A stretch of DNA of 48,673 bases from a virus. The notes beneath the pieces were generated by a model. The model saw nothing but the letters and a program-made list of their open reading frames with translations, was not told where the DNA came from and did no database searches. Below, piece by piece: positions 4,597 to 46,111 of this stretch. The translations under genes were made by a program, and so were the position numbers. Each line of letters begins with the position of its first letter. Position 1 is the stretch's first letter. The stretch lies in UHGV virus genome UHGV-0181052. The stretch is one strand, 5' to 3'.

Positions 4597-4598
4597 TC

Positions 4599-4654: not shown

Positions 4655-5029
4655 ATGACACATGCAGAGTTATCCAGAATATTGCACGGCGGCATTCGCA
4701 ACGTAGACCGCAAGACGTTTAAAGAGGCTTATGGCTTTATGCGCGCATTAAAGCGAGCTGTGTGCTATTTGCCTGTTAAAGAAAATCACAACTTAAAGTC
4801 AGCGGTTGAAGGCGCTGCTTGGTCTTTGATTTTCTGCGGCGTTAGTGCGGAAGAGGAAATAAAGTTAGGAGATATTATTTTCCGCATTAGCGGCAGGCCA
4901 TACCCGGCAATTGAGCATAAAAATAAATGGCTGATGAAGGTTAACTATAAAGGCGACAGCCGCAAGTTCATTAAGCATGAAGATTTAGAACGCAAACTTC
5001 GTTTAGATATGAATAAGGGGATCATGTAA
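4655..5029 (+). CDS. hypothetical protein (124 aa), AT-rich moron-like early gene
   Basis: ATG at 4655 with RBS AGGAGG. Promoter P2 lies immediately upstream. By eye the GC content is clearly lower than that of the flanking genes. No family recognised. Confidence 0.6.
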   Translation: MTHAELSRILHGGIRNVDRKTFKEAYGFMRALKRAVCYLPVKENHNLKSAVEGAAWSLIFCGVSAEEEIKLGDIIFRISGRPYPAIEHKNKWLMKVNYKGDSRKFIKHEDLERKLRLDMNKGIM

Positions 5030-9056: not shown

Positions 9057-9072
9057 GGCCCCCGTAGGGGCC
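9057..9072. repeat. GC hairpin GGCCCCCGTAGGGGCC between the J and tail fiber genes (copy 1)
   Basis: 6-bp stem with CGTA loop and no T-run. Identical to the copy at 35283-35298. Confidence 0.7.
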
Positions 9073-15000: not shown

Positions 15001-18000
15001 TCGGGTTGTACAGGTAGACGAAAATTTGCTTACTGTCGGCGTTGTTCGCTTTCGCGTAGAAGCTGACGACCACTTCGGTGCCGTCGATCGGAGCCGCAAG
15101 CTCATATTCAAATTGGTCGTAGGAGCCAGCTGAGGCCGCTGCAATCGCGATGCGACGGATAGCATTGCCTTTGTACGTCTGACCCTGCACAACGCCGCTG
15201 ACGCCTGCCAGCGTGCCAGAGTTAGGGATCAGGTTGGTGCCGCCGACGCGCATGTTATTCAGGTCACTGCGCAGGTTGGTGATCAGGCTGCTGTTTGCCG
15301 TCACTCGACCATCCAGCGCGGTCACGTCTGTTTTGAGCTGGCTGATGGCCGCGGCATTAGCGCCGATCTTGCCGTTCGCGTCAGTAAGGTCGCTTTGAAG
15401 CTGGGTGAGCGCCTGCGCCTGAGACTGGTTTTCGCTGGTCAGCGTGTCGAGACGCTGGGTCACGGCGGCCTTGTTCGCGTTGTAGTCAGTGCGCAGGGTG
15501 TTGACATCGCTGGCGATCGCCTGTTCTGCGGTGACGCGGGTCTGGCGCTCGTTGAAGATGATGCCTGTCACCAGCTTGGACGGGTCGGTTCCCTCATAGT
15601 TCCCGCGGAGCTGTACGGCCAGCGTGTTACGTGCTGCGGCTTCGGCTGAGTCCGCCGCGGTCATGGCGGTGCGAAGATCCTGAATCTGCGCCTGAGACGC
15701 GCCCGGGGTCGGACGTCCGACGGCCATCCAGTCGATCGCGTAGTAGTTATTGGCGTCCTGATTGGTTGAGAAGTCCAGACGCAGGCGGCGCACGGTGCCG
15801 GATGTCGCCCACAGCAGATCAGGCAGCGACAGGACGGTAATGCCGGTGGTCGGGTCAAAGTCAGGTGCCGGGATGGTCAGGGAGCGGGCATTGTTCCAGC
15901 CTGTCTCATCCACGCCAATCCAATACAGCTTACCAGCCCATGCCGGGTTACCTACCTTCTTCATGCGCAGGCGCATGTACTTATAGCTGCGCGCGTCGAT
16001 TGCCAGCGGGTTCGGTGAGCGCATGGTGGCCGCTGCGCCAGCAGGGTACACCCAACCATCCTGGTCGACGGGGAGCAGGTTGGTGTTGGCATCGTCAGAA
16101 GCCCAGCCTTCCGGCCCATTGTCGAAGTACCAGATCGCGAGGCTGTCGAACTGTTCGCCGGTACCAGCGGCAATGGATGCCATCTGCTGCGCCAGGCTGT
16201 CGAATCCGTCCTGCATCGTGGTGTTAGTGGTGCTGATCTGCGCTTCAACTTCGTTCTTCGCGGTCAGCAGGTTGGCCGCTGCGTCAGCTGCTACTTGTGC
16301 GTCATCCGTCTCGGCTTTCGCGATAGCGTCGGCCACGTCCTGAGCCGCCTTGTTGGCGTTCGCGATGTCGCCAGCCTTACGATCGAGGATCTCCTGAGCG
16401 ATTGCGCTGGCGTTAGCCGCCCCCGCGTTAGCGGTGTTGGTGATGTCCTGCGCGTTCTTCTGGATCTCGGCCAGCTGGTTGTTCAGCTGCTGCTGCTGCT
16501 GCTGGTTGGTCGCCACGGCGTCATCTGCGGTGACCTGTGCAGCCTGAGCGGCATCTTTCGCGGCCTGTGCGCTGTCGCCAACTTCCTTGATCCCGCTGGT
16601 CAGCTCGCCGTAGGTGTCGGAGCCTTTGATCGCGTCGTCGATGTTCTGGTAATAGTCGTCCATGTTGTCGGACGTCATCGCCATGACCGGGGCGCTCCAC
16701 TCGCCAGCGTCGCTATATGACGACACAAAGCGGGCGCGTACCTGCACGCGTTCGGCGAAGCTGAGGCCTGCCTGAGTGAACGTTCCGGTTGGGTAGGTCA
16801 CGACGCTGAGATCGATCCATTCGCCAACCGGCGCGCCTGCGTCATTGATACGCTGGAATTGTAGCTCGGTTGACTTCATGTCAACGAGGTCGTCTGTGCC
16901 GGTGACCCAGCGCCAGGTGATGCCGTTCACGATGCCGACGCCGTTCAGGCCAGCTACTGCCGGGATGCTGCCGCGCTTGCCGTCAACGAACACCTGATTC
17001 GACTCGACCCACTGAGACGACCCGCCGTCACGGGACACGGAACGAACGCGGAACTGATAGGTGCCGGTCAGAACGTTGGTCAGATCAACGGACGTGCTCG
17101 ACTGGCTGGCGAGGTTAGTCCAGCCCTGTGACCACTGGCCGTTAGACTGAGAGGTTCGACGCACCTGAATGTCGTAGCTGACAGCCTGATCGACGGTGAA
17201 CCAAGAACAGTTGACGTTGGCGGAGCGAAGACCCTGGTTAACGATGCTGTAGCCTTCGGCCACCACGTTAGTCGGTGCCGGTACCTGACCGGTCGGGATC
17301 AGCGAGGTCGGACGGTCTTCAATTCTCGCGCCGGTATCAACCTGCAAATACTTCGAGTGGCTGTATTGCAGACCGGTGACGGTGAAATTGTTGTCCTGCT
17401 CGTTGTAGGTGATCTTGGTGATGCGGATTAGTTCAGGGGCCAGCTCCTGAGTATCCAGCAGGAACACTTCGCCGCTCTGAATATCCAGGTCAGTGCCGTC
17501 GACGGTGAAGGACATCCGGTCAGCCGCGATTGCGTTGATCACGCGGTTGTAGGTGCCATCGGTTCCACCCTGACGAACGATTACGCGATCGCCGATTGCC
17601 ACGTGATCGGAGATCATGCGGTCTGAGGTGATGGTGGTGCCGGATACGCCAGCCACACGGCCGCCGAACTGTCCGCCCTGCACGTAGCGGTTGGCGATGC
17701 CGACGACGTCGCCGATCAGGTACTTGATGCCGTTCAGGCCGACGCGGTAGCTGATCTGCATATCGTTGATGTTCGACAGCAGCGCCCACAGGCCGCGTCG
17801 TTGCGCCTCGTATTCGTCGGTGCAGCCGATACCGGAAACTTCCAGCGGCTCGACGCCATAGCGTTCCACGAGGTCTTTGAACTGCGCGACGGTGGTCTGC
17901 GTCTTATAGTGCGCCTTCGGGTCGTCAAAGGTGACCATCGCGATCCCGCGACGGTTAGCCATGCTGCCGTAGGAGTATTCGAAGGTGCCGTTCACTACGT

Positions 18001-19147
18001 CGTCGTTCGTCACAACGTGACGGACTTCTGCCGGTGCGTCCTGCGCGAACTGCAACTGCATGTTGCTGTAGCTGACCATGCCGTTAAAGATCGACGCCAG
18101 GTCACGGATGACGCTCCACGCATGCGCACGCTTCTGGATATACACGTTGCAGGTGTAGCGGCGGTTCTGCGTGCCGTCGGCGTTCGTCACCAGCTCATCA
18201 CAGCGCTGTGCGATGCTGTACATCGTCCACTTGTTCAGGAATGAGGCCGGGATACGGCGGCCAATGCCGAAGCGCTTATGCAGAACAATGTCGTAGACGA
18301 TCCATGCCGGGTTATCAGTCCACGCCTGTTTAAATGTCCCGTTCCACGACCCGCTATAGGTGTGGTTCACCGGGTCATAGTTGGACGGAACCAGAACCAG
18401 CCGGCCGCCCATCTTGATGCTGATTTTCGGGATGTTCTGGAATGATTTGGCGTCGAAGCTGACGAACAGCAGGGACGTCCACGGGTAACGAACGCGGGCG
18501 TCAACGATCTCGGTGATAGCCACGATCCCGGAGTTGAGAACGGTGGTATCAGAGGTGCTATCGTCAGTGAGCCGGGTCACGCGGATTTGCCAGCCGGTGC
18601 TGCTCTTAGGCAGGTCGATGCGGTGATCGCGCTCATAGTTGTCTTTCTGCTTACCGTCCACAGCCCCATCGAAGGCCACGGTGTAGACGCTGTCGCCGAC
18701 TTTGCGGTATTCGATCCGATAATCAATGCGGCCGCCGACGCGATCCCCGTCCTTCTGCTGGATGACCAGACGGAAGTTCATACGGATACGGACGGCGTCG
18801 ATCTCGGTATTGGTGACGTTACGCACCCATGCAGCCGACTTTTTCAGCTCCACGTTAATGCGTGTCTCACTCTCCACCGCCGGGAAGCCGTTGATCGGCT
18901 CCTGCTGCGGGGTGCCGTTTCGATATTCCAGTGTTACGCCGGGAATGTTAACTGAGCCGTCTTCGTTCTGAACGGGAGTCCCGTCAAGATAAACGCGCTT
19001 CGGCAGGTCTTCCGCGCTAATCGGCACGGTTTCACCCTCTGACAACGCAAGTAGCATCCTTACCGTTGCGTTGCTGATCAGGGAGTCTGGATCTTCAACG
19101 GGAGTATGCACGTTGCTACTCCCGCCCTTGTATCCTTTGATTTCCAT
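9080..19147 (-). CDS. giant central tail fiber / host-specificity protein (lambda J-like N- and C-terminal parts separated by about 2000 aa of repeated modules)
   Basis: 3355-aa uninterrupted ORF. The N-terminus MEIKGYKGGSSNVHTPVEDPDSLISNATVRMLLALSEGE is J-like, and the C-terminal roughly 350 aa resemble the J receptor-binding region. The middle holds at least 8 repeats of a TTRVTxAEGKI coiled segment plus a roughly 170-aa beta-sandwich, carbohydrate-binding-module-like domain. Confidence 0.9.
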   Translation of the reverse strand: MEIKGYKGGSSNVHTPVEDPDSLISNATVRMLLALSEGETVPISAEDLPKRVYLDGTPVQNEDGSVNIPGVTLEYRNGTPQQEPINGFPAVESETRINVELKKSAAWVRNVTNTEIDAVRIRMNFRLVIQQKDGDRVGGRIDYRIEYRKVGDSVYTVAFDGAVDGKQKDNYERDHRIDLPKSSTGWQIRVTRLTDDSTSDTTVLNSGIVAITEIVDARVRYPWTSLLFVSFDAKSFQNIPKISIKMGGRLVLVPSNYDPVNHTYSGSWNGTFKQAWTDNPAWIVYDIVLHKRFGIGRRIPASFLNKWTMYSIAQRCDELVTNADGTQNRRYTCNVYIQKRAHAWSVIRDLASIFNGMVSYSNMQLQFAQDAPAEVRHVVTNDDVVNGTFEYSYGSMANRRGIAMVTFDDPKAHYKTQTTVAQFKDLVERYGVEPLEVSGIGCTDEYEAQRRGLWALLSNINDMQISYRVGLNGIKYLIGDVVGIANRYVQGGQFGGRVAGVSGTTITSDRMISDHVAIGDRVIVRQGGTDGTYNRVINAIAADRMSFTVDGTDLDIQSGEVFLLDTQELAPELIRITKITYNEQDNNFTVTGLQYSHSKYLQVDTGARIEDRPTSLIPTGQVPAPTNVVAEGYSIVNQGLRSANVNCSWFTVDQAVSYDIQVRRTSQSNGQWSQGWTNLASQSSTSVDLTNVLTGTYQFRVRSVSRDGGSSQWVESNQVFVDGKRGSIPAVAGLNGVGIVNGITWRWVTGTDDLVDMKSTELQFQRINDAGAPVGEWIDLSVVTYPTGTFTQAGLSFAERVQVRARFVSSYSDAGEWSAPVMAMTSDNMDDYYQNIDDAIKGSDTYGELTSGIKEVGDSAQAAKDAAQAAQVTADDAVATNQQQQQQLNNQLAEIQKNAQDITNTANAGAANASAIAQEILDRKAGDIANANKAAQDVADAIAKAETDDAQVAADAAANLLTAKNEVEAQISTTNTTMQDGFDSLAQQMASIAAGTGEQFDSLAIWYFDNGPEGWASDDANTNLLPVDQDGWVYPAGAAATMRSPNPLAIDARSYKYMRLRMKKVGNPAWAGKLYWIGVDETGWNNARSLTIPAPDFDPTTGITVLSLPDLLWATSGTVRRLRLDFSTNQDANNYYAIDWMAVGRPTPGASQAQIQDLRTAMTAADSAEAAARNTLAVQLRGNYEGTDPSKLVTGIIFNERQTRVTAEQAIASDVNTLRTDYNANKAAVTQRLDTLTSENQSQAQALTQLQSDLTDANGKIGANAAAISQLKTDVTALDGRVTANSSLITNLRSDLNNMRVGGTNLIPNSGTLAGVSGVVQGQTYKGNAIRRIAIAAASAGSYDQFEYELAAPIDGTEVVVSFYAKANNADSKQIFVYLYNPNATLTALSSQGKTGSWSNGGDGSMTIDLTEDWARYWVKYTRKSGQTGTQRVIFGRLLKGSKDKEVYISSPKFEYGTMPTEWSEAPADNASASALQALTTRVTAAEGTISTNSQAITQLKGDVSTLQGQMATKAEASALQQLATTVTQQGNTISSQGQAITDLQNTAQNGKAKYWLTKIFDIKVNGSGYIPKLSDLSGVPPLAVSEMADAAKLDFLTYGDYKIAYAKSLVYVAADKTIAIAPGSRIVDDTGRLYINGAEAATFGASTATYNLVLKKGWNTLEFVVAQITGQFYINFGLKLSDNVDQLFSGAGQLAAASASQILSSQVEQTAGKVDSNSAAILTLNNSVQDINTALNNKADASALQSLTTRVTTAEGKITAHGNAITQLTSDLSTANGKIAANSTAITNLTTRVTAAEGKIDSQAEAITSINSSIKGALTQAANLIPNPTVDPAYGQMGLTVVSTASEGVPADCPYPWAIKCQYRDHVPAMNNIPCREGQVFELSVLAACGTGSAPFQHYIGTSTVVSGSIGSPQANGGQISAATGAKWTRTTWRWTVNAAQGAKGYFRPFLQIAQGGPDFGTVWYATDWSVRDITAAANAESKADANATAITQLTTRVTSAEGSITSQGQAITKLTGDLSTLTGIVNSKADASALNALTTRVSTAEGKIDSQGQSITQLSNSLSATDASIDAQGKIPGNLLANSSFERGPVNFTGWSSLATIITATQPHSGTKIAKMAAGGSAGISQAVEITQGRRYRFGVFAKQDTGTVINDPGNTKFRIADASGNLLIGTNYGPFTSEWQHVFMDWTATKTTNALFQLTTWLSAGAMYFDDVYVVDITNDTKIQANADAITSLNTKVTQQGNDITSQGSSITQLTNRLLTVQYSNSNPWVDGSFESYDNQQAIGGANGLVTTEFAFSGQKSLMCRRANGETGNSDKTIGYETAIRESAVYRFECWAMMPETETPPEGWSCLVGLMVRTSAGQAAWPTALNINEATLAAGGGRGKWVKFSGKIGAGGAQKTRGRLWISCRGTSGGPGYRVFIDDLVITDVTDAHAAQITADANASAINSLTSRVSSAEGKITSQADAITKLNGDVSTINGTLSQKADASAVTALQTRVTTAEDKIESQGTAITNLNNGLEAQRRTGENLVQNYDFLQGDTAYSLQRDSFSTVTFGAYGDGKNGVRMVKVNATSPGLFANNKKPVPQNGQRRYRYVVRAKGVSGGMNLLMRRWNYNGSVEGSYSDKNNTLTTDWQTLTWETDLTPASGFDGSAFGLYCHPSNAEVWIDSFKVYDITEELTIKANSAAISSLTTTVTQQGQDITAQSNALTQLKSSLTNDAVALAANPDNMLTNTGFERGTDSWSGWSSRADVYAAQAPKSGAMILRGKSGGNTAIGQNVLGAKAGRTYRFGGYVKRTADMAIGPNTYGNNKFRLGNATTGAGPLSELNFSEANIGTNWTLLTKDFVPATDMDVAYSINWNLATGEIYFDDVFFIDVTDEINNAANATAISNLTTRVTTAEGKITSQGTAITQLTADLSTANGKITANANAITSLQSTVTQQGNTLTSQGQAITKLNSDLSDLSGVVDTKASASALNSLTTRVTNAEGKITANSNALTSLTSRVGNAESAIDGLNETTAANGLAMANGFQQLRAQIGDNQAAITQTNKAVVDLETATAQQIDTINASMDGMSATVQQTSTAVADINGKLSAQWGVKVQTDTGGGNPRIAGIQLGIDASGSSQFLVQADTFAVYAGGSNKTFPFVVQNGVAYMQEALIRDGSITNAKIGNEIRSNNFVDGSQGWRIAKDGSSQFNNVIVRGRVEANSGVFKGTLQAESFIGDIAVARRYDDMSFRRNQTVQRNGAYQNRGYGMTVVLSCTLVYQLTGAGNVQQSYSVDITFNIGGQEVTRRFFANASGFQAGDFTQEFRFAADLAADNNNVTFFIKARGNDASFDYNCSIQNITATAFRTNSNSFS
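16486..16503 (-). repeat. (CTG)6 microsatellite inside the J-like gene, encoding Q6 on the coding strand
   Basis: ctgctgctgctgctgctg. Because it is a triplet repeat, slippage would preserve the reading frame. Confidence 0.8.
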
Positions 19148-22412: not shown

Positions 22413-22437
22413 AAAAAAAGCCTCCTGTGTGGGAGGC
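22413..22437 (-). terminator. terminator/attenuator-like hairpin between tape measure and gpM
   Basis: Minus strand: GCCTCC-CACACA-GGAGGC followed by T7 and then the ATG. The 3' arm doubles as the SD. Confidence 0.55.
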
Positions 22438-22446
22438 TGTAGGTTA

Positions 22447-26009: not shown

Positions 26010-26030
26010 AAAAAGGCGGCCTAAGCCGCC
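26010..26030 (-). terminator. terminator/attenuator-like hairpin after the major tail protein gene
   Basis: Minus strand: GGCGGC-TTAG-GCCGCC followed by T5, then the RBS of the G gene. Confidence 0.6.
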
Positions 26031-26046
26031 CTGATGATAGCACGCT

Positions 26047-28701: not shown

Positions 28702-28723
28702 AAAAGGGGGCCAATCGGCCCCC
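28702..28723 (-). terminator. terminator/attenuator-like hairpin after the major capsid gene
   Basis: Minus strand: GGGGGCC-GATT-GGCCCCC followed by TTTT. Confidence 0.55.
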
Positions 28724-29912: not shown

Positions 29913-29934
29913 AAAAAGCCCGGCATTGCCGGGC
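29913..29934 (-). terminator. terminator-like hairpin between the scaffold and capsid genes
   Basis: Minus strand: GCCCGGC-AAT-GCCGGGC followed by T5. Confidence 0.5.
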
Positions 29935-29940
29935 CTGTGC

Positions 29941-30642: not shown

Positions 30643-30674
30643 GTGATAGCTCCTGTGTTGTCAACGGCACGATG

Positions 30675-31793
30675 TTAGTCTTCTGCCGGGATGCGGTCAA
30701 GGTCGCGAAGTTGGGCGAGTGTTAAATACTCCCCCTTGTCGTTGAACAGGTCAGGCGGCGAGATCTTGCCGTCGCGGATGAGTTGGGCACGATCCACGCC
30801 GAACACCTGCGTTAACGTGCTCATCGGCTGGCGCTCCACCCAGCTCGAATAGTCCATGTAAATCGGCACCTGTCCGTTCATGCTGGCGCGCGATGCACCC
30901 TTGATCTTGACTCCCGGAACGCCCAATTCCTCCCAGCTCTTGAACACGAAGGTGGACGTACTGCGGCAGTTCATGTGCAGCCGCCCCGGGCCAGCGCCGT
31001 ATGGCACGCTATGGCCGATAGGCGTGTGCTTCTTGTCCCGCATGTACAGCAGTTGATCGCGGATGATGCACAGTTTTGACGTCTTATTGTCCAGCGTCGA
31101 CAGCCACTGTTCTGACTTGATGAGCGGTGCGTTGGCCTCGCCGATCTTGTCCCGCGCCTCAGCTGCTACGTGCGACACTGCGCTGCGGGTGACGGTGGCA
31201 AGGTGGCGCTCGTTTGTGCCGATCACCCCGTCTTTGTAGGCCGCTGCTGCACTGCCCTTGACCCGGCGAATGATCTGGTCATACGTCTCGCCCTGTAAGA
31301 TGCCCTGCTGCACCGCCCGGCCGATAGAGTCTGTCATGGCCTCACCCAGCACTGACGGGATGTCGCGCAGAAGCATGCCCTGGAACGGGCGACTGTTCGC
31401 CGCCGCCCACACCTGCGTTTCCGGGATCTCCACCAGTCCGCCCACGAAGTCCAGCACAGGGTTAGGGATGAGCGTTCGCCACGTGCGGTACTGGTACGCC
31501 AGCTCGCCGTTACTCAGCGCCTCAAGGTCAGCCTTGAGCTGGCCGTAGGTGGTTTTGTAGATGCGGTTGATCGTTGGGTTAATGGCTGCTTTGATGGCCT
31601 CAAGACGCCTCACCGTGTAGTTGTCGGCGGAGATCTTTGAGTCGTCCAGCGCATATAGCAGGCGGCCGACCACATCCACCGCCATGCGGCGCAGTAGCTG
31701 GGTCATCTTCTTGGCCTGGCCTTCGCCATAGCGGTAGAGGTAGAGGCGGTGCCTTACCGCCTCCGACGCCATCCGCGAGTTAACGGATGTCAT
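30675..31793 (-). CDS. head morphogenesis / minor head protein (Mu F-like, SPP1 gp7-like)
   Basis: 372 aa, directly after the portal gene with an ATGA overlap. Confidence 0.7.
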   Translation of the reverse strand: MTSVNSRMASEAVRHRLYLYRYGEGQAKKMTQLLRRMAVDVVGRLLYALDDSKISADNYTVRRLEAIKAAINPTINRIYKTTYGQLKADLEALSNGELAYQYRTWRTLIPNPVLDFVGGLVEIPETQVWAAANSRPFQGMLLRDIPSVLGEAMTDSIGRAVQQGILQGETYDQIIRRVKGSAAAAYKDGVIGTNERHLATVTRSAVSHVAAEARDKIGEANAPLIKSEQWLSTLDNKTSKLCIIRDQLLYMRDKKHTPIGHSVPYGAGPGRLHMNCRSTSTFVFKSWEELGVPGVKIKGASRASMNGQVPIYMDYSSWVERQPMSTLTQVFGVDRAQLIRDGKISPPDLFNDKGEYLTLAQLRDLDRIPAED

Positions 31794-33400
31794 TTAGCCC
31801 CCTTCTTCGGCGCGCTGGCCTTCTTCTTGGCGATCGGCTTGTCTTCCTCCGGGTCTTTCTCTTCCGGCGGATTGTCCAGTCCCTGTTGGGTCTGTCGAGC
31901 GGCTGCGTTGAAGATCAGCTGCGTCTCTTCGGCCCCGTCTTTCAGCTCCTGCTCAACGTCCTCCAGGTCAACATCGTTCGGGATCAGGCCGATGCGCTGC
32001 TGCCACGCGAGGAAGTCGATCATACGCATCATCCCTGACTGCACCGCCGCCATGTAGGCCGTCAGTTCGGTCGGGTTCAGGACGATATCCTCATAGCGCT
32101 TGTTGATGTGGACGTTCGCGCCCTCGGTGCCGGTGAAGTCCTTCACCATCTCCATCGCCTGATTAAACGCCGCCTCGACGTTGCCGACGCACTGGGACAG
32201 GATCGAGTTGTCGGTTTTCTCATCCGCACCAGCCTGGGTGGCGGTCTTCGTCGCCCCGTTGCGCTCAACCAGCTTAGCGCCCAGCATAGCCAGCTGCTTC
32301 TCACGCTTCTCCAGCAGCGCAGCGGCCGGGGTGTTCGGTGGTGCCACGACCATGCTGGCTGTAGGCGTGCCGGTACCCATGGATTGCAGAATGATCGCTT
32401 CGTCACCGCCCACCTTGATGTTCGGGTTGTCCTTCTGGAAGTTCTGCGGGACACCGGCGATCACGAAGGTCGGCTGGCCGCAGATAAACGAGCTGTCAGT
32501 GTTGTCGGCGTCGGCGTTGTAGTGGGCGATGTTGGTGTTCGCGATGTCGGACAGCGGAGCCGGGTCAATGTCGCTGTCGTTCTTCTCGCTGCCGAACCAG
32601 CAAAACGGCAGGTAGTCGATGTGCTTCCCGCGGGCCATGATCGGGCGCAGTTCTGGCTCCTGCTGGTTCATGCTCCCGTTCTGCTGGATGACTGACGAAG
32701 GAAGACCGGCGGCACCCTGTAATTCATCCGTCCACAGGCGGGAATACGCCTTGCCATCCACCATGCGAAGCTCAAGGTAACGAACCACCTGATAGTGCTC
32801 GAAGCCGTCATAGTCGACGTCGTCCAGGTAGCGCAGCACAACCAGCGTGTACTTCCCGTTGCTCTTGCGCCAGTTGATGATCTGCCGGTGGTCGAACATG
32901 CGGATGGTCACGCGGCCGCTGTTGACCAGCGTAGTCACCTGCCCGACGTCCTCCGGGGAGTCATAATCGACCAGCAGTCCACCACGACCGAAGGTGATGT
33001 TCTGCGCTACGCACATTCGCACCAGCTGATCCATATCCAGCCCTTCGCCGTCGATGTCGGTCGACAGGTAGTCGATGGCCGTCGGCAAGGTGTAGGTGGC
33101 CGGTTTTGCGAACGCGATGCCGACCATACCCATCTGCGTGCGGTAGGTGGCGTTGAGGAAGTGGGCGCGGCGCTTGTACGCGTTGTAACGCTTCATTGTC
33201 CATGCTTCGGGCTTCGGCAGATACAGGACACCGGCGCGCTTGATGACCGTCTGCCCTGCCACGCAGTCCTCAATGGTGCGGTATTCCTGGTTGAACCGCT
33301 TATAGAGCGGGTGTTCGGTGGATACCGTCCCCGCCTGCGGCAGTGTCGTGATCGTCATATCATCGTACCCATTCAATATTATTTGCTGAGATCGTGCCAT
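31790..33400 (-). CDS. portal protein
   Basis: 536 aa, downstream of TerL, with an acidic C-terminus. An alternative start ATG at 33358 sits 1 nt past the TerL stop. Confidence 0.8.
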   Translation of the reverse strand: MARSQQIILNGYDDMTITTLPQAGTVSTEHPLYKRFNQEYRTIEDCVAGQTVIKRAGVLYLPKPEAWTMKRYNAYKRRAHFLNATYRTQMGMVGIAFAKPATYTLPTAIDYLSTDIDGEGLDMDQLVRMCVAQNITFGRGGLLVDYDSPEDVGQVTTLVNSGRVTIRMFDHRQIINWRKSNGKYTLVVLRYLDDVDYDGFEHYQVVRYLELRMVDGKAYSRLWTDELQGAAGLPSSVIQQNGSMNQQEPELRPIMARGKHIDYLPFCWFGSEKNDSDIDPAPLSDIANTNIAHYNADADNTDSSFICGQPTFVIAGVPQNFQKDNPNIKVGGDEAIILQSMGTGTPTASMVVAPPNTPAAALLEKREKQLAMLGAKLVERNGATKTATQAGADEKTDNSILSQCVGNVEAAFNQAMEMVKDFTGTEGANVHINKRYEDIVLNPTELTAYMAAVQSGMMRMIDFLAWQQRIGLIPNDVDLEDVEQELKDGAEETQLIFNAAARQTQQGLDNPPEEKDPEEDKPIAKKKASAPKKGAK

Positions 33401-34751
33401 TATGCACGACAGGGAACTTATAGACCACCGGATAGGTGCCTGCGTCGTTCATGTGATCCTTCCCGGCCTCTTTGTCCGGCTTGCCCTTGTCATCGTAGAT
33501 CTGCTGCTCCAGACACTCGACGAATTGCGGGCAGCGCTTGCTGCTGACGAACAGGCGACGTCGTCCGCTGGCGTTGCAGAACAGGGTGTTCGCGCTGATT
33601 ACCCTGTCCTTCACCGCTGGGTTAGCCAGACCACAGTAGACGTCGAAACCGGCGCTCATGAGCATCGACAGGTCGGACATACTGGCGTTCTTGCTGCTGG
33701 TGTTGCCGCCGGACGCATCCGGGTAGACCTCGATCGGGTGGACGTAGCCGTTGCCCGGGTTCTGGTACTTCTCGACCAGCCAGCGGATGACGTCAGGGGT
33801 GTCGATGCCGTTGTGCCGCTCATCCACGGCGTGCAGTTCGGCCAGACCATCCTCGCCATAGCGCTCGACGTAGACGACGGTCGCCATCTTGTTAACGTTG
33901 AAGTCCTGGCCGACGATCAGCGTCTCCCCGGGGATGATCTCCACGTCGGTATCGTTCAGCTCGCGCTTAAAGTTCTTATAGACCGTGCCCGATTTCAGGT
34001 TGACGAATTGCCCCTTCGCATAGGCCTCGAAGCGCTGCGGGTCGTAGCTGGCGCGCAGGGCGTCCAGGTAGTCGGCAGGCAGGAAGGGGTTGGATGAGGT
34101 GGCGGCCTGGATCATGAGGTAACCGGCCTTGCGGCTGCGCTCCTTGTCCTTCGCCCAGCGGCCATACAGGAAGTTGAATCCCTCGGGCGTGCAGTAGGCG
34201 CTAACCCTGTTCAGCGGGCGGTCATCGGGCAGGAAGTCGAACGGAACATACTCCTTCGGTGACTGACGACAGCGGGCGATGGCTGCGCGCCAGACCCCTT
34301 TGGCCGCCTCTTTCTTGAGGGTGTCGATCTCATCGCAGTGGATGCGGAACGCCTCCCACCCGACCAGGCGAGCCGGGTTGTCCATGGAGCGAAACAGGAA
34401 GTCACCGATCCCGCCGTGGGAGGTGTAGATCTCCTTGTTGCCGACGGTCTTAAAGCGAATGCCCAGTTCGGAGAGGATCTGCTCGATGCGCGGCACGGCA
34501 ATCAGCTTGCACAGGTCGAACGTTGGCTCAAGAATGGCGATCGTGGCATCTGCTCCACCCTCTGAGGCGTCGAGCACGGACGACACGGCCATGGTCTGGC
34601 TCTTGCCGGTACCGAAGCCCGCCACGAATGCCGGGTGTTTGCACGACAATTGCAGAAAATCGTTCTGCGGTGGTGTAAGTGTCAGGTCAATGAATTGACT
34701 GGCGTCGGATTGGATAGACATAAAAAAGCCCCGTTGTGTTAACGGGGCCAT
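33360..34751 (-). CDS. terminase large subunit
   Basis: Walker A GFGTGKSQT and ATPase plus nuclease halves. Alternative start ATG at 34721, immediately after the hairpin. Confidence 0.9.
   Translation of the reverse strand: MAPLTQRGFFMSIQSDASQFIDLTLTPPQNDFLQLSCKHPAFVAGFGTGKSQTMAVSSVLDASEGGADATIAILEPTFDLCKLIAVPRIEQILSELGIRFKTVGNKEIYTSHGGIGDFLFRSMDNPARLVGWEAFRIHCDEIDTLKKEAAKGVWRAAIARCRQSPKEYVPFDFLPDDRPLNRVSAYCTPEGFNFLYGRWAKDKERSRKAGYLMIQAATSSNPFLPADYLDALRASYDPQRFEAYAKGQFVNLKSGTVYKNFKRELNDTDVEIIPGETLIVGQDFNVNKMATVVYVERYGEDGLAELHAVDERHNGIDTPDVIRWLVEKYQNPGNGYVHPIEVYPDASGGNTSSKNASMSDLSMLMSAGFDVYCGLANPAVKDRVISANTLFCNASGRRRLFVSSKRCPQFVECLEQQIYDDKGKPDKEAGKDHMNDAGTYPVVYKFPVVHNGTISANNIEWVR
34722..34748 (-). 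terminator. strong intrinsic-terminator-like hairpin at the very start of terL
   Basis: Minus strand: GCCCCGTT-AACAC-AACGGGGC followed by T6, then ATG (34721). Confidence 0.65.
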
Positions 34752-34767
34752 GATAGCAGTTGTCAGG

Positions 34768-34977
34768 CTATGAGAGCACGCGGAGGAATGCCGTGTACCG
34801 CGTGGCGATGTGCGCCACCCCTACCAGGAGGAAGACGGCCAGCACCAGCTTGGTGATCTGGCTGACCGGGTTAGCCTTGAGGCGTTCCCTGTCCATTGCC
34901 GCCATATGGATCGCGATCATCGCGACAGCTGTAACCAATGCCAACCACACACCCATTACGATCCCCATCATAACCAC
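34768..34977 (-). CDS. small membrane protein (2 predicted TM helices)
   Basis: 69 aa with two hydrophobic stretches. It lies between the coiled-coil gene and terL. Confidence 0.4.
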   Translation of the reverse strand: MVMMGIVMGVWLALVTAVAMIAIHMAAMDRERLKANPVSQITKLVLAVFLLVGVAHIATRYTAFLRVLS

Positions 34978-35055
34978 CTCGCTGTAAGCCTGATTAAAGC
35001 CTATCAGCCAGCCACTTCGGTAATCAACCGCCTAAATGGTACAAAGTGTAAGCAA

Positions 35056-35268
35056 TCAGACCAATCCGAAGGCCCGGATGAAGCCTGCTGCGATGAACGC
35101 CCAGCAAGACCAGTGGAACACGTCGCCAGCGATGCCGAAGGTTCGTGCCATCCTGAGCATACGCTTGTCACTTCCTGCGCCGATATCCAGGGCCACTGAC
35201 CAGCCTTTGCAGCAGAGGAAGCAGAGAAGGCAGAGAACGGCGCTAATGATTGGGTAGTACGTTTGCAT
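35056..35268 (-). CDS. small membrane protein (2 predicted TM helices)
   Basis: 70 aa: MQTYYPIISAVLCLLCFLCCKGW...WSCWAFIAAGFIRAFGLV. Confidence 0.4.
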   Translation of the reverse strand: MQTYYPIISAVLCLLCFLCCKGWSVALDIGAGSDKRMLRMARTFGIAGDVFHWSCWAFIAAGFIRAFGLV

Positions 35269-35282
35269 TGGGTAGCCTCATT

Positions 35283-35298
35283 GGCCCCCGTAGGGGCC
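35283..35298. repeat. GC hairpin GGCCCCCGTAGGGGCC between the coiled-coil gene and the membrane-protein gene (copy 2)
   Basis: Identical 16-mer (17-mer including the following G). Confidence 0.7.
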
Positions 35299-35308
35299 GG
35301 TAGGTGGA

Positions 35309-36910
35309 TTATTTGCGCATCTTCGAAAGGATATCAACAACTGCCTGATTCAGGTCTTTAATCTCATCCCTGATGACTTCACGGATGGCGGCCTTCATTT
35401 CGTCGCTGAACGTCACCTTGCTGGCCGGGATGCAGCCGTTCATGATCACCGCGCTATCCTTGACCATGGCCCAGCCACGAGCAGACGGCAGGACGTACTC
35501 CTTCACCGGCTCATTGCTCACAACTACATCGTCTTTCAGCTTGGTGACCTTCAACGTGCCGCACATGGTCTGCTGGCCGTCGATGTCCACCGTACTCACC
35601 TTCACCTTCGCCTTCACCAGCGAAAGCAGTTGCTCGTTCGTGTACACAACGGCGCAGGTGTCGGTGTAGCTCTTCGCCCACAGCACCCAGGCGTCGCGCT
35701 GTGCTGCGATGGCCTTCACGGTTGCTTCCAGCGTCTCAATACGCTCCTTGCGTTTCAGCATCACTGAGCCGATGGCCTTACGCTGCGCATCCATCGACAT
35801 ATTGGATGGTGAGCAGATGATGTCGTTTGCCCAGCTCTTCCAGTTGGTAAGCATCTTGTCCATCTGTTCAACTTCGTTTCGCAGTGCGTCGACCTTGCGC
35901 GCCTGACACTTCAACGTGTGTTGGTCAACGGCCGTTCCCGCTTTCAGGTCTTCGGCAAGCTGTTTGTAGTTGGCGATCTCCAGACCAGCGTCAGCCAGCT
36001 TGGTAGCCAGCTCGCGGTTCTCACCCTCAAGCAGGGTGATGCGTTGCAGCAGGGCGTTCTCCTGCGCCTCAGCGTGTGATCGAATGTTCGAATACACAGC
36101 CGCCGACTGCACAACCTCACCGTCTAACCGGCGCTTGAGGTCTGCGATCTGCAATCGTGCATTAGCCAGGCGCGTCACGACGTCATCCCGCTGCTTAGTC
36201 AGTGCCTGTGCGTCATTGGTGAGCGCAACGCAACGCCGTGCTGCTGCGCCCAGTTCGCGGCGGTAGTCGTCGGCGAGATGGGTCAGGCGCTCACGCTGCT
36301 TTTTCAGGTCGTTGACCTCACAGGCCAGTTGGTTAGCCTGCTGCCCGTTCTTGTCGCGCTGGCGCACCAGGTCGACGATGGTCTGATCGAGGTGCTCGGT
36401 GCGCTTTTTCAGGCTGTCGTTGGCTTCGTTCAGGGACTTGATTTCTTCCGCTGCGTTGCGGTTGAGGTTGATCACGCCTTCGCGTTCACTTTTCAGCCTG
36501 GCCGACTCGTTGCGAGACGACTCAATGGCCGCTTTCAGGATGATGCGCAGTTGATCGTCATTGGTGACGCTTGTCGGGTAGGTGACGAAGAAACGATCCA
36601 GGATGTGGCGGGTGAATGTGCGCCAGTCTTCCAACTTGCCAGCTGCAACACCGAGGTCTTCGGCGCGTTCGTCGAGGCGTCCCACAAGCGTCTCCTTCTC
36701 CTTCGCCAGCAACTCAACGGCGTCGGTCAGGGCACGCAGGGTGCCAACCTTGATCTTCACGTGCTGCTCGGTGCCACGGCCGTAAAGCTCGATGTCGATG
36801 ACCCTTGCGAGTCTGACGTTATTCTCAGTGCTGCCGCTGCTGTCTGCGCAAGCGAGAACGCCGCTAACTGGTGCCGGTGCCGGGGAGGTGAACTTTAATG
36901 ATTCAGTCAT
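35309..36910 (-). CDS. long coiled-coil protein (533 aa) of unknown function
   Basis: Central roughly 300 aa are heptad-rich (LKKRTEHLDQTIVDLVRQRDKNG...). The ends are globular. No ATPase motif. Confidence 0.6.
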   Translation of the reverse strand: MTESLKFTSPAPAPVSGVLACADSSGSTENNVRLARVIDIELYGRGTEQHVKIKVGTLRALTDAVELLAKEKETLVGRLDERAEDLGVAAGKLEDWRTFTRHILDRFFVTYPTSVTNDDQLRIILKAAIESSRNESARLKSEREGVINLNRNAAEEIKSLNEANDSLKKRTEHLDQTIVDLVRQRDKNGQQANQLACEVNDLKKQRERLTHLADDYRRELGAAARRCVALTNDAQALTKQRDDVVTRLANARLQIADLKRRLDGEVVQSAAVYSNIRSHAEAQENALLQRITLLEGENRELATKLADAGLEIANYKQLAEDLKAGTAVDQHTLKCQARKVDALRNEVEQMDKMLTNWKSWANDIICSPSNMSMDAQRKAIGSVMLKRKERIETLEATVKAIAAQRDAWVLWAKSYTDTCAVVYTNEQLLSLVKAKVKVSTVDIDGQQTMCGTLKVTKLKDDVVVSNEPVKEYVLPSARGWAMVKDSAVIMNGCIPASKVTFSDEMKAAIREVIRDEIKDLNQAVVDILSKMRK

Positions 36911-36987
36911 TTTGATGTCCTGTGCAGTAGGGGCAGGATTGCCCGGCCCCTATATTCCTGCGCAGTCATAGATATGTCAAGCAGTAT

Positions 36988-37485
36988 TTAGTCGTCACCC
37001 CAGTCGACCGCCTCGGACTCCTCGCGCGGCTTCTCCTCCTTCGGCCGCTCGCTGACGATCTTCAACCGCACCGGCTTGTTGGCGTCACCGGTCACGACGA
37101 TCTCAGTGTTGTCGCGGTAGCCGAAGTTCGCTTTCAGCATGAAGGTCGCGAAAGTACTGTTCGTGGCGAATCCAATATTCAGAATCATCTGCTCGTAAAG
37201 CTCGCGCGCCTGCGTGTAAGCGACAGCAAATTCCTTATGCTTCGAACGCCAGTCATGAAACGTCGTCGTCGTGATGCCGATGCTTTCACAGAAATTGAGA
37301 ATAGACGGCATGTGCTTCGGGTTGATGCGGATGTTGCTCTTACCGGCTGTCGTGTGTGAGTGCTGGATATAGTCATCAACGTCGACCCGGAAGTATTCAA
37401 GGAGTTTTTCCGGCATATCCTCGGTGTAACTGGTTGGTCTGCCGACTGGGTTCCGCGGTGTCGTCACCTTCACCTTGTCAGTCAT
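36988..37485 (-). CDS. terminase small subunit (putative)
   Basis: 165 aa, first gene of the leftward late unit, with an N-terminal HTH-like region and an acidic tail. The assignment rests partly on position. Confidence 0.55.
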   Translation of the reverse strand: MTDKVKVTTPRNPVGRPTSYTEDMPEKLLEYFRVDVDDYIQHSHTTAGKSNIRINPKHMPSILNFCESIGITTTTFHDWRSKHKEFAVAYTQARELYEQMILNIGFATNSTFATFMLKANFGYRDNTEIVVTGDANKPVRLKIVSERPKEEKPREESEAVDWGDD

Positions 37486-37549
37486 GTTGTTTTTCCTCTT
37501 TCAAGTGGCTCTGCCTCAGTTTACCCCTATACGGCATGGTGGGGAGAAT

Positions 37550-37582
37550 AAAAACGCGCAGCCACTGCGTAGCGCTTTTTTC
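37550..37582. terminator. GC-rich imperfect hairpin flanked by A5 and T6 (bidirectional terminator-like), upstream of terS
   Basis: AAAAACGCGCAGCCACTGCGTAGCGCTTTTTT. Confidence 0.35.
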
Positions 37583-37645
37583 TTCCCCCATGTGCGTAAG
37601 GGTGTACGTGTTTCTGTAATTATATGGGTTTTATATATAATAGGG

Positions 37646-37810
37646 ATACCACCTAACACCCGAAATTAATCCTTTCATATCAGTAGCTTGCGAACGTCAG
37701 GAAGTGAGGTGTTTCGACATCTCCACCTGAATTAATCCTTTCGCATCAATCACTTAGTATTTTCACCGCTCGAAGCACGGCAAAATGCCTCCACCCGAAA
37801 TATTGCTGAC
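37646..37810 (+). repeat. iteron-like direct repeats in the divergent control region (candidate origin of replication)
   Basis: Copy A GAAATTAATCCTTTCATATCA at 37662-37682. Copy B GAATTAATCCTTTCGCATCA at 37730-37749. Each is preceded by CCACCT. A third partial copy CCACCCGAAATATTGC lies at 37791-37806. Confidence 0.55.
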
Positions 37811-37989
37811 ACTGTACACGCACTTTTTGTGCTCAATTTGTGTACAGCGATTCTGTGGATAACTTTTCCCCAGTCGATTGATTTCACTGGAAAATATAAT
37901 ATTGATACGGGGGAGTCCCTATCTGTTGTGTTTACATACTGTATAAGCGCTCAAAGTCCTCCCTGTTTTCAGGTGGAAAGTAATTGCTA

Positions 37990-38021
37990 TTGACACGGTA
38001 TTACTCGCCGTTAATAATACC
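37990..38021 (+). promoter_or_regulatory. early promoter P_rep with dyad
   Basis: TTGACA 37990-37995, 16-17 nt, TAATAAT. The dyad is GGTATTA / TAATACC. The UTR ACCCGAACC is related to those of P1 and P2. Confidence 0.65.
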
Positions 38022-38044
38022 CGAACCAAATCAGGAGGAAAACG

Positions 38045-44733: not shown

Positions 44734-45229
44734 ACACCTTCGCGTTCCGGCCAACGGCCTCAGCATCCCGCCAGTTCATCCCCTTCGCCAGCGCCTGCCG
44801 CGCCAGCGCACGACGAACCAGCCCGGGGACAATCTTACCGCTCTGCTTGCGGAAGAACTCCAGCTGTACGATCAGCTCATCCCAGCGGCCTTGCGTTACC
44901 AGGTCGTCGAAGTCACCTGCCTTCTTGTCCGGCCTGATCGGCTCTTCACCGGCATTGATGACCAGATCAACCAGCGCGTCAAAGATTGGCTGCGTGATGG
45001 ACTTATGCGCCCACTCGTTCACCTTCTTCTCCGCGTAGGCGAGATCTTCACGCAGGATCGCCAGTGCCGCCTCTCGTGTGATGTTGATTCGTGGAGGGTT
45101 CCGGCCAGTGTGACCGAAGCCCCAGGTGTAGATCCCGCGACGGCGCTCATCTTCGGTTGCGAAGTAAGGCGCGCTGCGGAATTTCTCCCAGGCTGCTGTA
45201 AATTGCAGCCCGTTATCACTCATCTTCAT
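44732..45229 (-). CDS. endolysin (phage lysozyme, GH24-like)
   Basis: 165 aa: YFATEDERRRGIYTWGFGHTG. It lies adjacent to the spanin and holin genes. Confidence 0.75.
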   Translation of the reverse strand: MKMSDNGLQFTAAWEKFRSAPYFATEDERRRGIYTWGFGHTGRNPPRINITREAALAILREDLAYAEKKVNEWAHKSITQPIFDALVDLVINAGEEPIRPDKKAGDFDDLVTQGRWDELIVQLEFFRKQSGKIVPGLVRRALARQALAKGMNWRDAEAVGRNAKV

Positions 45230-45527
45230 TTGTTACCCCTTGTTGCTTGCAATAGTCGGTTGTACTGGGTGTTGCAGCGCTGCCCGGCGATGTAGTACCG
45301 ATCAGCTTCTGCTGCCAGTTCGTTACCCGCTTGCACTGACTGATAGAACAGCTCGGCGAGCAGATCGGAGAGCGTTCCGGCATCACTGCTAATGCCGACA
45401 GCGGCGGCGTGTTGTTTTGCGAGGGCAGTGGCTGCGTTGAGTTGCTGGCGCAGCCGGTCAGCAGCATAAGCAGCACCAGCAGCGTCAGCGCGTGCTTGGT
45501 CAATCCGGCGAGACGTGTCGCGATCAT
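45216..45527 (-). CDS. o-spanin (Rz1-like lipoprotein), overlapping/overhanging Rz
   Basis: MIATRLAGLTKHALTLLVLLMLLTGCAS has a lipobox. The remainder is Pro-rich. It ends 10 nt beyond the Rz stop. Confidence 0.6.
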   Translation of the reverse strand: MIATRLAGLTKHALTLLVLLMLLTGCASNSTQPLPSQNNTPPLSALAVMPERSPICSPSCSISQCKRVTNWQQKLIGTTSPGSAATPSTTDYCKQQGVTNEDE

Positions 45528-45726
45528 CTTGGTCTTTCTCCCGCTGGCGCATATCGGCCAGCTCACGGTCAATTTTATTTCTGCGTTCAGCCTCCTTGTT
45601 GATCCCAGCTGTAACGCCGCTTTCATAACGGCTTTCGCCGTACTTGCTCAGTGCATAGCTGCCGCCCTGCCATAGCAAAAAGGCGGCAAGGGCCGCCAGC
45701 AGGTAGATTTTAAGGTTGCCGATCAT
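45226..45726 (-). CDS. i-spanin (Rz-like)
   Basis: N-terminal TM IYLLAALAAFLLW, then a charged coiled-coil. It contains the o-spanin ORF in the +1 frame. Confidence 0.7.
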   Translation of the reverse strand: MIGNLKIYLLAALAAFLLWQGGSYALSKYGESRYESGVTAGINKEAERRNKIDRELADMRQREKDQDDRDTSRRIDQARADAAGAAYAADRLRQQLNAATALAKQHAAAVGISSDAGTLSDLLAELFYQSVQAGNELAAEADRYYIAGQRCNTQYNRLLQATRGNK

Positions 45727-46093
45727 TTTTCCCCCTGAGATTCATGGACGGGAAATACCGCTCAACCACGCGAATGACCTTATCGATCCCAACGTACCCA
45801 AGCACGCAGGCAACGATCCAGCCTGCATCCTGGTTTGCGATCCAGTGCATCCGCGGAACGGAATCCCCGATGATGGTGATGATGAAGGTGATGCCCTTCG
45901 CGAACATTGCCGCCATGATCGCATTCGTCCAGATCTGCCGCCTTTCGTGACCAAGCTGGATGTGACGCAATGTAGCCATGACGGCCGCAGCGATGGGGTA
46001 ATCTAAGTCGGTCTTATACATCCGATAGATGTCGGTGATGCCGTGGAAGAAGTCGCCCAAAAGAAAAGCCCCCGTGTTAGTAACGGGGGCCAT
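45710..46093 (-). CDS. holin (start uncertain)
   Basis: Three hydrophobic segments. The annotated ATG at 46093 is immediately followed by a terminator-like hairpin, so the true start may be internal. Confidence 0.5.
   Translation of the reverse strand: MAPVTNTGAFLLGDFFHGITDIYRMYKTDLDYPIAAAVMATLRHIQLGHERRQIWTNAIMAAMFAKGITFIITIIGDSVPRMHWIANQDAGWIVACVLGYVGIDKVIRVVERYFPSMNLRGKNDRQP
46061..46090 (-). terminator. intrinsic-terminator-like hairpin at the start of the holin gene, a paralogue of the terL element
   Basis: Minus strand: GCCCCCGT-TACTAAC-ACGGGGGC followed by TTTTCTTTT. Confidence 0.6.
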
Positions 46094-46111
46094 GATAAGC
46101 GCAAAATCTAT

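Follow-up and report, generated by a model that had tools for sequence, protein, structure and literature searches.

Gp15 of HK97 is reportedly a superinfection-exclusion moron of lambdoid phages, and in T7 the small and the large terminase subunit are encoded by gene 18 (terS) and gene 19 (terL), with the spanin genes 18.5 and 18.7 in between. Here we analyze a 2.2-kb segment of the virus genome UHGV-0181052 (48,673 nucleotides; this whole stretch is called the window below) that invites comparison with both: it separates terS from terL and encodes a 533-aa coiled-coil protein, termed here CC, and two small membrane proteins, termed here tm70 and tm69. As with the moron of HK97, its extra genes separate two genes that adjoin each other in relatives, it encodes small inner-membrane proteins, it is dispensable for lytic growth, and it would be served by a sigma-70-type promoter of its own (here predicted), with a hairpin at the end. 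It differs from the moron in that its phage appears virulent, its base composition is not atypical, it carries a 60-kDa coiled-coil orphan with no similarity to known moron proteins, and the terminator downstream of it belongs to terL. With T7 it shares the presence of membrane-protein genes between the small and large terminase genes, but the T7 pair is an embedded Rz/Rz1 with a lysis function, whereas here the spanin is annotated in a separate lysis cluster.

CC itself can be compared with two other kinds of phage proteins. In T4 fibritin (wac) and the phi29 head fibre gp8.5, which are expressed late, a trimeric rod bears a foldon or another defined knob; CC resembles them as a non-essential segmented coiled-coil rod with a conserved N-terminal region and a variable C-terminus, but its heptads are dimer-like, its length is unconstrained, it matches no family or fold, and a place in the virion would be hypothetical. 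The phi29 protein p16.7 is a membrane-anchored dimeric coiled-coil organiser of DNA replication, 130 aa long, with its own transmembrane (TM) helix and a DNA-binding domain; CC is likewise non-essential, probably a dimeric coiled coil and possibly active at the membrane, but it has no TM helix and no recognisable DNA-binding domain.

An accessory cassette at the terS/terL junction

Comparison of the junction among relatives and the deletions described below show that the 2.2-kb segment is an old, lineage-restricted accessory cassette at a terS/terL hotspot. The gene order on the minus strand is terS, CC, tm70, tm69, terL, portal, and the region 34768-36910 extends exactly from the tm69 stop to the CC start. 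An earlier reading of the window, made from the sequence alone (the sequence-only reading), had stated that terS and terL are normally adjacent and here lie 2.2 kb apart; we measured 2,266 bp from the terS stop to the terL ATG, and in Jerseyvirus (e.g. Shelanagig, TerL 50% identical) the two genes overlap with nothing between them.

A megablast search with positions 33300-37600 retrieved 39 phage records, nearly all of them Klebsiella siphoviruses of the unclassified vB_Kp3 / HSE3 / ATCEA85 cluster, with OY979434 as the top match (93.5%). All 61 proteins of OY979434 could be mapped onto the window, which is a complete, circularly permuted genome of ~48.7 kb. The phage appears to be a virulent, i.e. 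lytic, Klebsiella siphovirus of the vB_Kp3/HSE3 cluster, since no integrase is annotated in OY979434, its closest relative, and PMBT64 was classified as virulent by PhaTYP.

We ranked TerL relatives by tblastn and read the regions upstream of terL; a scan of IMG/VR with TerL yielded 4 loci. The vB_Kp3-like phages (32 GenBank records, TerL 96-100%) possess CC (~460-590 aa), tm70 and tm69 at the junction, the ATCEA85-like phages (TerL 85%) a 612-aa CC homologue and a 144-aa four-TM protein, and K70PH128C1 (K70 below; TerL 79%) a 390-aa CC homologue together with proteins of 70 aa and 99 aa and a 66-aa two-TM protein. In local BLAST, the N-terminal module and the C-terminal tail of the window's CC were recovered in the homologues of both ATCEA85 and K70. 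Pectobacterium phage Ymer (TerL 68%) has six small open reading frames (ORFs) between terS and terL, two of them encoding two-TM proteins, Serratia phage Smarc2 (TerL 65%) a single 50-aa hydrophobic ORF overlapping both neighbours, and KLB22 (TerL 66%) small TM ORFs upstream of terL with no terS nearby. With overlapping terminase genes in Jerseyvirus and other small ORFs in the intermediate relatives, the junction is, as judged from synteny, a hotspot for accessory genes. Conservation of the cassette extends to at least 30 GenBank phages. The GC content of the insert is 0.573 (0.573-0.579) vs 0.578 for the genome, and GC at third codon positions (0.72-0.81) is similar to that of terS and terL; this composition, together with homologous cassettes in three lineages down to a TerL identity of 78%, agrees with the earlier statement that the insertion is not recent.

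The cassette is also subject to natural deletion. Among the GenBank phages with TerL at least 96% identical, 30 of the 32 keep a detectable CC homologue, the exceptions being Holland_MM2 and HSE3. Holland_MM2 (46,433 bp) has cleanly lost ~1.8 kb, beginning at CC codon 20 and ending within the tm70/tm69 spacer, and retains the promoter, the leader, a 31-aa remnant, tm69 and the terL element described below. In HSE3 (46,747 bp) the reading frame of CC shifts after codon 94, and the stretch between CC codon ~146 and tm70 codon ~17 is deleted; this phage has a latent period of 30 min and a burst size of ~277 (PMC7232175). In IMGVR_UViG_3300007747_000003 (46,372 bp) CC is lost, out of frame, from codon 34 to ~68 residues from its end, with tm70 and tm69 kept. 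The disruptions of CC thus have three different breakpoints in two sub-lineages, and two of the three also hit tm70. CC and tm70 are dispensable for lytic growth, and since the deletions are independent, natural and found in viable phages, an essential structural, ejection or packaging role of the two proteins is excluded. Of the candidate roles proposed earlier, the virion or ejection protein and the packaging scaffold would thus apply in a non-essential form only; the natural deletions take the place of the deletion mutant that the sequence-only reading had called for.

Two further genomes deserve mention. In an IMG/VR genome (L015, IMGVR_UViG_3300045988_080205, 2834-4410, protein P0022) the CC gene appears frameshifted near codon 412-424, and in Haden_MM8 (H139) CC is split over three annotated ORFs. 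These breaks may represent further pseudogenisation or sequencing errors.

Rapid and mosaic evolution of CC

Comparison of the window with JYSS1, vB_Kp3 and HJK1 gave amino acid identities of 85-99% for terS, 96-99% for terL and 87-97% for portal, against 35-46% for CC. Nei-Gojobori estimates, for which the closer relative K49 was included, gave a ratio of nonsynonymous to synonymous substitution rates (dN/dS) of 0.36-0.43 for CC vs 0.04-0.05 for terL and portal; CC evolves approximately ten times faster than the neighbouring genes. In the comparison with JYSS1, dS in CC is also ~3 times that of the flanks, and this elevation points to recombination that brought in divergent segments. CC type and terS type vary independently: in K49 the CC type is the same and the terS type a different one, and JYSS1 shows the reverse. 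The length of CC ranges from 309 to 612 aa through in-frame deletions in the coil; the most extensive natural examples (P0064, 309 aa, and P0055, 430 aa) have lost most of the coil and retained both ends, and therefore the length of the rod is unconstrained and the two ends are constrained. Phages isolated on a single strain, ATCC 700603, represent at least five CC types; CC type would appear to be independent of host range. The cassette is the most variable non-tail locus of these phages.

CC is an orphan coiled-coil protein

AlphaFold2 (AF2) predicted helices in CC at residues 55-109, 116-323 (one helix of 208 residues), 331-365, 373-415 and 503-532. A crude best-register heptad score was uninformative, its null being too high, and we used Fourier periodicity and a dynamic-programming register assignment instead. 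Hydrophobicity over residues 116-323 has a sharp period of 3.5 residues, with a Fourier power of 88.6 vs a null of 11.3 (0 of 1000 shuffles). The AF2 helices and this periodicity together indicate that the long coiled coil is real. The overall confidence of the models is low (full-length CC: predicted local distance difference test, pLDDT, 64.6 and predicted template modelling score, pTM, 0.23; C-terminal 234 aa: pLDDT 55.5, pTM 0.27), and because pLDDT is below 50 at both ends, no fold can be assigned. Of the earlier description of CC as a long coiled coil with globular ends and no NTPase motif, the coiled coil is thus confirmed by periodicity and AF2 and the missing NTPase motif by the lack of Walker A, whereas the globular ends find no support in the models.

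In the register assigned to residues 116-323, Leu occupies 17 of the 30 d positions, the a positions contain I/L/A/V and some N/R, e is K/R and g is E/Q. The composition of heptad positions a, d, e and g serves as a rule of thumb to tell parallel dimers from trimers, and by this rule the coil is probably a parallel dimer rather than a trimer. The alignment of CC homologues reveals a conserved N-terminal region of ~60 aa with an invariant core (F7, T8, A13, P14, C21 and QHVKIKVGTL), a signature motif YKQLxEDLKAGTAVD, and a Trp-rich "knuckle" (W-x2-3-[WF]...[YC][PS][TS]...) that is repeated three or four times, with three copies in the window (WRTF..TYPTS, WKSW..CSPS and WVLW..YTD). Between these conserved elements the homologues carry alternative coiled-coil cassettes with large indels, and several alternative beta-ish modules occur in the C-terminal part; in the window, residues 438-500 form the variable beta-ish region and residues 503-532 a conserved amphipathic C-terminal helix. 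CC is probably a rod of ~60 kDa, in which conserved N- and C-terminal modules are joined by a coiled coil of freely variable length.

Searches of Pfam, PHROG and PADLOC with CC, tm70 and tm69 gave no match above the cut-offs; the sub-threshold matches were to other coiled coils (OVT1, Cep57, and the arms of JetC and LmuB), and those to JetC and LmuB in PADLOC span the coiled-coil arms only, at E-values of 1e-4 or weaker. The matches of a CC profile in the PDB all had E >0.03 and were limited to reovirus sigma-1, a short tail fibre and designed coiled coils, and a Foldseek search of the PDB with the CC model returned nothing at E <=0.001; no similarity to a fibre, decoration or Ig-like family rose above threshold in Pfam, PHROG, Foldseek or the PDB profile search. 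The possibility, raised in advance, that homology would reveal a standard structural protein was thereby checked and is not borne out, CC having no counterpart among families, folds or solved structures. A word-indexed search of 5.8e9 proteins found 64 CC homologues, all on phage contigs of ~48 kb, and a profile of the N-terminal 125 residues, run against 1.84e9 representatives, found 12 proteins, namely 11 family members and one spurious repeat protein. As far as these searches reach, CC is an orphan family confined to one group of phages and belongs to no described family.

Some relatives of CC bear functional labels in GenBank, which we rejected. "Methyl-accepting chemotaxis protein I" is incompatible with the lack of a chemotaxis signalling domain, a HAMP domain and a TM helix, and "chromosome partition protein" with the lack of an SMC ATPase head, a hinge and Walker A; both labels are coiled-coil artefacts. 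We also dropped a link between the cassette and the KpAvs2 triggers Ksap1/Ksap2, Ksap1 being a soluble 74-aa protein encoded elsewhere in Dhillonvirus genomes.

The small membrane proteins

The sequence-only reading had described two small membrane proteins with two hydrophobic helices each, and this applies fully to tm69, which has two clear TM helices and a short C-terminal tail (TRYTAFLRVLS), and in part to tm70, in which one strong N-terminal TM helix is accompanied by a weaker hydrophobic C-terminal helix. The start of tm69 is ATG 34971, preceded by the Shine-Dalgarno sequence GAGGTG. The 95-aa version annotated in OY979434 (2494-2781, corresponding to 34768-35055 of the window) was rejected on account of stop codons within the extension in the window and the good Shine-Dalgarno sequence before ATG 34971. 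We found no embedded gene and no lipobox at the genes of the small membrane proteins.

The two proteins differ in their conservation. tm69 is 82-98% identical in relatives (82-97% vs JYSS1, vB_Kp3 and HJK1), with dN/dS of 0.02-0.17, and is kept in all three deletion variants, and tm70 is 74-90% identical (74-77% vs JYSS1, vB_Kp3 and HJK1), with dN/dS of 0.24-0.69, and is deleted in Holland_MM2 and truncated in HSE3. tm69 thus behaves like a core gene that is always kept, and tm70 like a variable one, lost twice. Homologues of tm69 were found only in this phage group, the 66-aa protein of K70 being a weak one.

Transcription signals of the cassette and of terL

The cassette is headed by a predicted promoter whose hexamers are kept in relatives while the spacers diverge: the hexamers are conserved in HJK1, and the sites in ATCEA85 and K70 read TTGACA-N16-AATAAT and TTGACT-N18-GAATAT. 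Promoters of the same family (TTGACA...TAATAT or AATAAT) head the other non-structural units of the window. Several promoters of this family (TTGACA-N16-18-[TGA]AATAT/AATAAT) carry a palindrome between -35 and -10 (GCATATAACGC, GCATATTATGC and GGGATATTATTCC), which may be an operator; the CC promoter has no such palindrome. The GC hairpin in the CC leader has a folding energy of -13.1 kcal/mol, no better than that of shuffled sequences (z = -0.7). In the window, ATCEA85 and K70 its loop contains the motif GGCAAT or has it alongside, and in HJK1 the hairpin is register-shifted, with the loop GCTAATA.

The hairpin between CC and tm70 lies between the CC stop and the ribosome-binding site of tm70. 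The earlier remark that an identical GC hairpin recurs in the genome proved correct: the 16-mer GGCCCCCGTAGGGGCC occurs identically at 35283-35298 and at 9057-9072, between the genes of the giant tail protein and the tail fibre, with a variant at 40989, i.e. three matches vs 0.01 expected, and all three sites lie in junctions of the type stop-hairpin-ribosome-binding site-ATG, without a T-run. At the same position, JYSS1 and vB_Kp3 have a different GC hairpin and ATCEA85 a hairpin followed by T5, so by comparison of these sequences it is the structure that is maintained and not the sequence.

The strong terminator-like hairpin before terL had been taken to close the inserted unit. This hairpin (34749-34727, followed by T6) has a folding energy of -17.2 kcal/mol (z = -4.2). 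The combination of TATCATGGCCCC, a stem-loop and a T-run occurs exactly twice in the genome, at the terL ATG and at the predicted start of the holin gene (46064-46099, minus strand), and both copies are conserved in OY979434. The stem before terL reads CCCCGTT/AACGGGG in the window, CCCCTGT/ACAGGGG in ATCEA85 and CCCCAT/ATGGGG in KLB22, a phage with no CC cassette, and it is kept with compensatory changes in ATCEA85, K70 and KLB22. Because the element is maintained through compensatory changes even in KLB22, it belongs to terL and is ancestral; the hairpin is an element of the terL 5' flank, with a twin before the holin gene, and not the end of the insert. It could act as an attenuator or a gate for antitermination, as an operator masking the GGGG Shine-Dalgarno sequence that lies 7 nt upstream of the ATG, or, since TGCTATCAT resembles an extended -10, as a composite terminator/late promoter. 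The TATCATGGCCCC elements may act as a common gate for two clusters of late functions, headed by terL and the holin gene.

Proposed role of the cassette and alternatives

We propose that the cassette would form a moron-like transcription unit of its own, consisting of a host-type sigma-70 promoter, leader hairpin, CC, GC hairpin, tm70 and tm69, located upstream of the hairpin/T-run element that would mark the start of the terL-to-tail block. Its products would be made in the infected cell independently of or before those of the structural genes and would act at the inner membrane as a module for interaction with the host or with competitors, in which CC would serve as an adaptor or tether rather than as a building block of the virion. 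The conserved ends of CC would bind partners and the length of the rod would be irrelevant; the evolution of CC would reflect relaxed constraint, cassette recombination and repeated loss. Superinfection exclusion and modulation of defence or membrane function are candidate actions. tm69 probably has a separate, more core function, tied to terL expression or to late infection. We consider an intracellular, membrane-associated role in interaction with the host or competitors, e.g. exclusion or defence modulation, exerted by a dispensable moron-like cassette, somewhat less than evenly probable (roughly 0.45), on the grounds of predicted co-transcription with membrane hairpins, hypervariability, dispensability and the occurrence of at least five CC types on one host strain. 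It is doubtful whether one may go further and regard CC and tm70 (perhaps with tm69) as an undescribed inner-membrane system, in which a dimeric tether on membrane hairpins blocks the entry of competitor genomes or neutralises or decoys a membrane-associated host defence, with hypervariability and loss as marks of an arms race with strain-specific costs and benefits.

Several observations count against such a role. CC, tm70 and tm69 have no homology to known exclusion or anti-defence families in PHROG, Pfam and PADLOC; judged by sequence comparison, the missing similarity to Sie, Imm, Cor or anti-defence proteins lowers the probability of membership in these families, not that of a similar mode of action. 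The overall dN/dS is below 1 and an arms race is not demonstrated. Residues 1-24 and 438-500 of CC, toward its two ends, have pLDDT below 50 in two AF2 runs, and the assignment of a dimer follows heptad composition rules only, a rule of thumb. The CC promoter and the timing of its expression are no more than predicted; a promoter of this family also stands before the block with the lysis genes at its end, so that "early" is unproven, and terS too lies upstream of the terL element, so that location relative to this element does not by itself divide structural from non-structural genes. Moreover, dispensability is also compatible with a virion decoration, since wac, hoc and soc of T4 and the head fibres of phi29 can be dispensed with.

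The last point leads to the possibility that CC is a non-essential virion appendage or decoration, fibritin- or head-fibre-like, anchored by its N-terminus and carrying a variable C-terminal module that aids adhesion to capsule or mucus, the membrane proteins being unrelated passengers. The anatomy fits, since the conserved N-terminus (~60 aa) is followed by a coiled coil that loops divide into segments and by a beta-ish C-terminal region that varies, the mosaic evolution of CC resembles that of receptor-binding proteins, and the gene lies in the head/packaging region and is transcribed in the same direction. We nevertheless regard an appendage as unlikely: known fibres are trimeric and the heptads of CC dimer-like, a rod that tolerates lengths of 309-612 aa is unconstrained, phages with at least five types of CC infect one host strain, no fibre, decoration or Ig-like family is matched, and CC stands behind its own predicted sigma-70-type promoter, upstream of the terL 5' element. 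Our literature search found no virion proteomics for this phage group, and the description of PMBT64 virions by transmission electron microscopy has no appendages (PMC13435897).

The position of the cassette between terS and terL, co-oriented with both, might instead reflect a non-essential helper of packaging or assembly, in which a membrane-anchored dimeric tether (CC with tm70 or tm69), working like p16.7 of phi29, brings TerS, TerL, procapsids or replicating DNA together at the inner membrane. A small hydrophobic ORF just upstream of terL does recur in Smarc2, Ymer, K70, ATCEA85 and KLB22, and tm69 is under strong purifying selection and never deleted, but the small ORFs of the distant relatives, K70 excepted, have no detectable sequence similarity to those of the window. 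A packaging partner is made improbable also by the variation of CC independently of terS in K49 and JYSS1, by the hypervariability of CC next to highly conserved TerS, TerL and portal, and by the robust burst of HSE3, which has neither CC nor tm70.

The three independent losses, the probable frameshift in L015/P0022, the possibly split gene of Haden_MM8 and the high substitution rate could be read as signs that CC has no function and is decaying, as a neutral passenger on its way to gradual loss. This is quite improbable in view of an intact CC ORF in about 30 of the 32 close GenBank relatives, a dN/dS of ~0.4, well below 1, ends and knuckle motifs that are invariant down to ATCEA85 and K70, length changes that are mostly in frame, and the conservation of the predicted promoter and the 3' hairpin. 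Least probable is that tm70 and tm69 are lysis-timing factors (holin, antiholin or pinholin-like) with CC as an unrelated accessory, an idea to which the hydrophobic hairpins of ~70 aa, the T7 precedent of lysis genes between terS and terL and the absence of a holin in the HSE3 report lend some appeal, as against a separate holin-spanin-endolysin cluster at 44735-46093, the absence of holin family matches in Pfam and PHROG, the lack in tm69 of the charged C-terminal tail typical of holins, and the dispensability of tm70.

CC represents an untapped orphan family that may govern competition between phages or evasion of defence. The vB_Kp3-like phages, of which at least 32 genomes are in GenBank, have been isolated repeatedly as therapeutic candidates against multidrug-resistant Klebsiella, and one member has already been used in a cocktail. 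Dispensability makes the cassette a safe engineering site with ~1.8 kb of free capacity behind a predicted native promoter, and Holland_MM2 and HSE3, compared with near-isogenic relatives, make its function directly testable.

Features of the locus and other observations

The structural genes of the window form a minus-strand block with terS (37485) at one end and the tail fibre gene (7834) at the other; besides it there are two early/middle blocks and the separate lysis cluster (holin 45713-46093, spanin 45229-45726, endolysin 44735-45229). Features of the junction and the related promoters are collected in Table 1.

Table 1. Features of the terS/terL junction of UHGV-0181052 and predicted promoters of the same family (positions in the window)
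Feature	Position	Strand	Basis or remark
terS (small terminase), upstream flank	36988-37485	-	Pfam GP3_package 1.1e-11; PHROG 3064 terminase 4e-48
Predicted sigma-70-like promoter P(CC), TTGACA-N17-GAATAT	36952-36980	-	conserved hexamers
CC leader GC hairpin GGGGCCGGGCAATCCTGCCCC, directly after -10	36930-36950	-	comparative
CC, 533-aa (59 kDa) segmented coiled-coil orphan protein	35309-36910	-	ORF, AF2, periodicity
Intercistronic GC hairpin CGGCCCCTACGGGGGCC, no T-run	35283-35298	-	-17.7 kcal/mol
tm70, 70-aa Cys-rich membrane protein	35056-35268	-	hydrophobicity
tm69, 67-aa two-TM membrane hairpin	34768-34971	-	hydrophobicity
terL 5' element, TGCTATCAT + hairpin GGCCCCGTT/AACGGGGC + T6, abutting terL ATG	34722-34757	-	folding, comparison
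terL (large terminase), downstream flank	33360-34721	-	Pfam Terminase_6N + Terminase_6C
Similar predicted promoter, primase-helicase block	37990	+	
Similar predicted promoter, ExoVIII/Erf/SSB block	4599	+	
Similar predicted promoter, methyltransferase-to-lysis block	968	-	
Similar predicted promoter, internal early unit	39941	+	
Similar predicted promoter, internal early unit	42215	+	

The start of terL is the ATG after the T-run, and homologues align from residue 1-2 of MSIQ; an alternative start at ATG 34751, giving a 463-aa protein, was rejected, as the corresponding ATG of neither ATCEA85 nor K70 is in the frame of terL. A scan for tRNAs and a scan with Rfam gave no matches in the window. 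Within the structural block, sites with a strong hairpin and a T-run on the minus strand follow the genes for the scaffold (29916-29936), the major capsid (28706-28723), the major tail (26013-26032) and the tape-measure protein (22419-22438), and a promoter-like sequence, TTGACC-N17-TAACAT, precedes the scaffold gene (30672-30700). These sites suggest a stepwise tuning of transcript levels.

The TerL match in Ymer (2451-4715) is in two pieces spanning 2,166 nt, within a terL ORF of 2,265 nt, and a split match was found in eight Pectobacterium/Dickeya phages; it probably indicates an intein or another in-frame insertion in TerL. In the 3,355-aa tail protein of the window (9080-19147, minus strand), a repeat of 84 nt (28 aa) occurs at least 12 times in diverged form, the copies being organized in higher-order units. 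Between terS and the primase-helicase gene lies a divergent, AT-rich intergenic region of 560 bp (37486-38044, GC ~0.49) with two direct repeats, GAAAGGATTAATT(C/T)(A/C)GGTG, ~70 bp apart, which may represent a pac site, an origin or a regulator-binding site.

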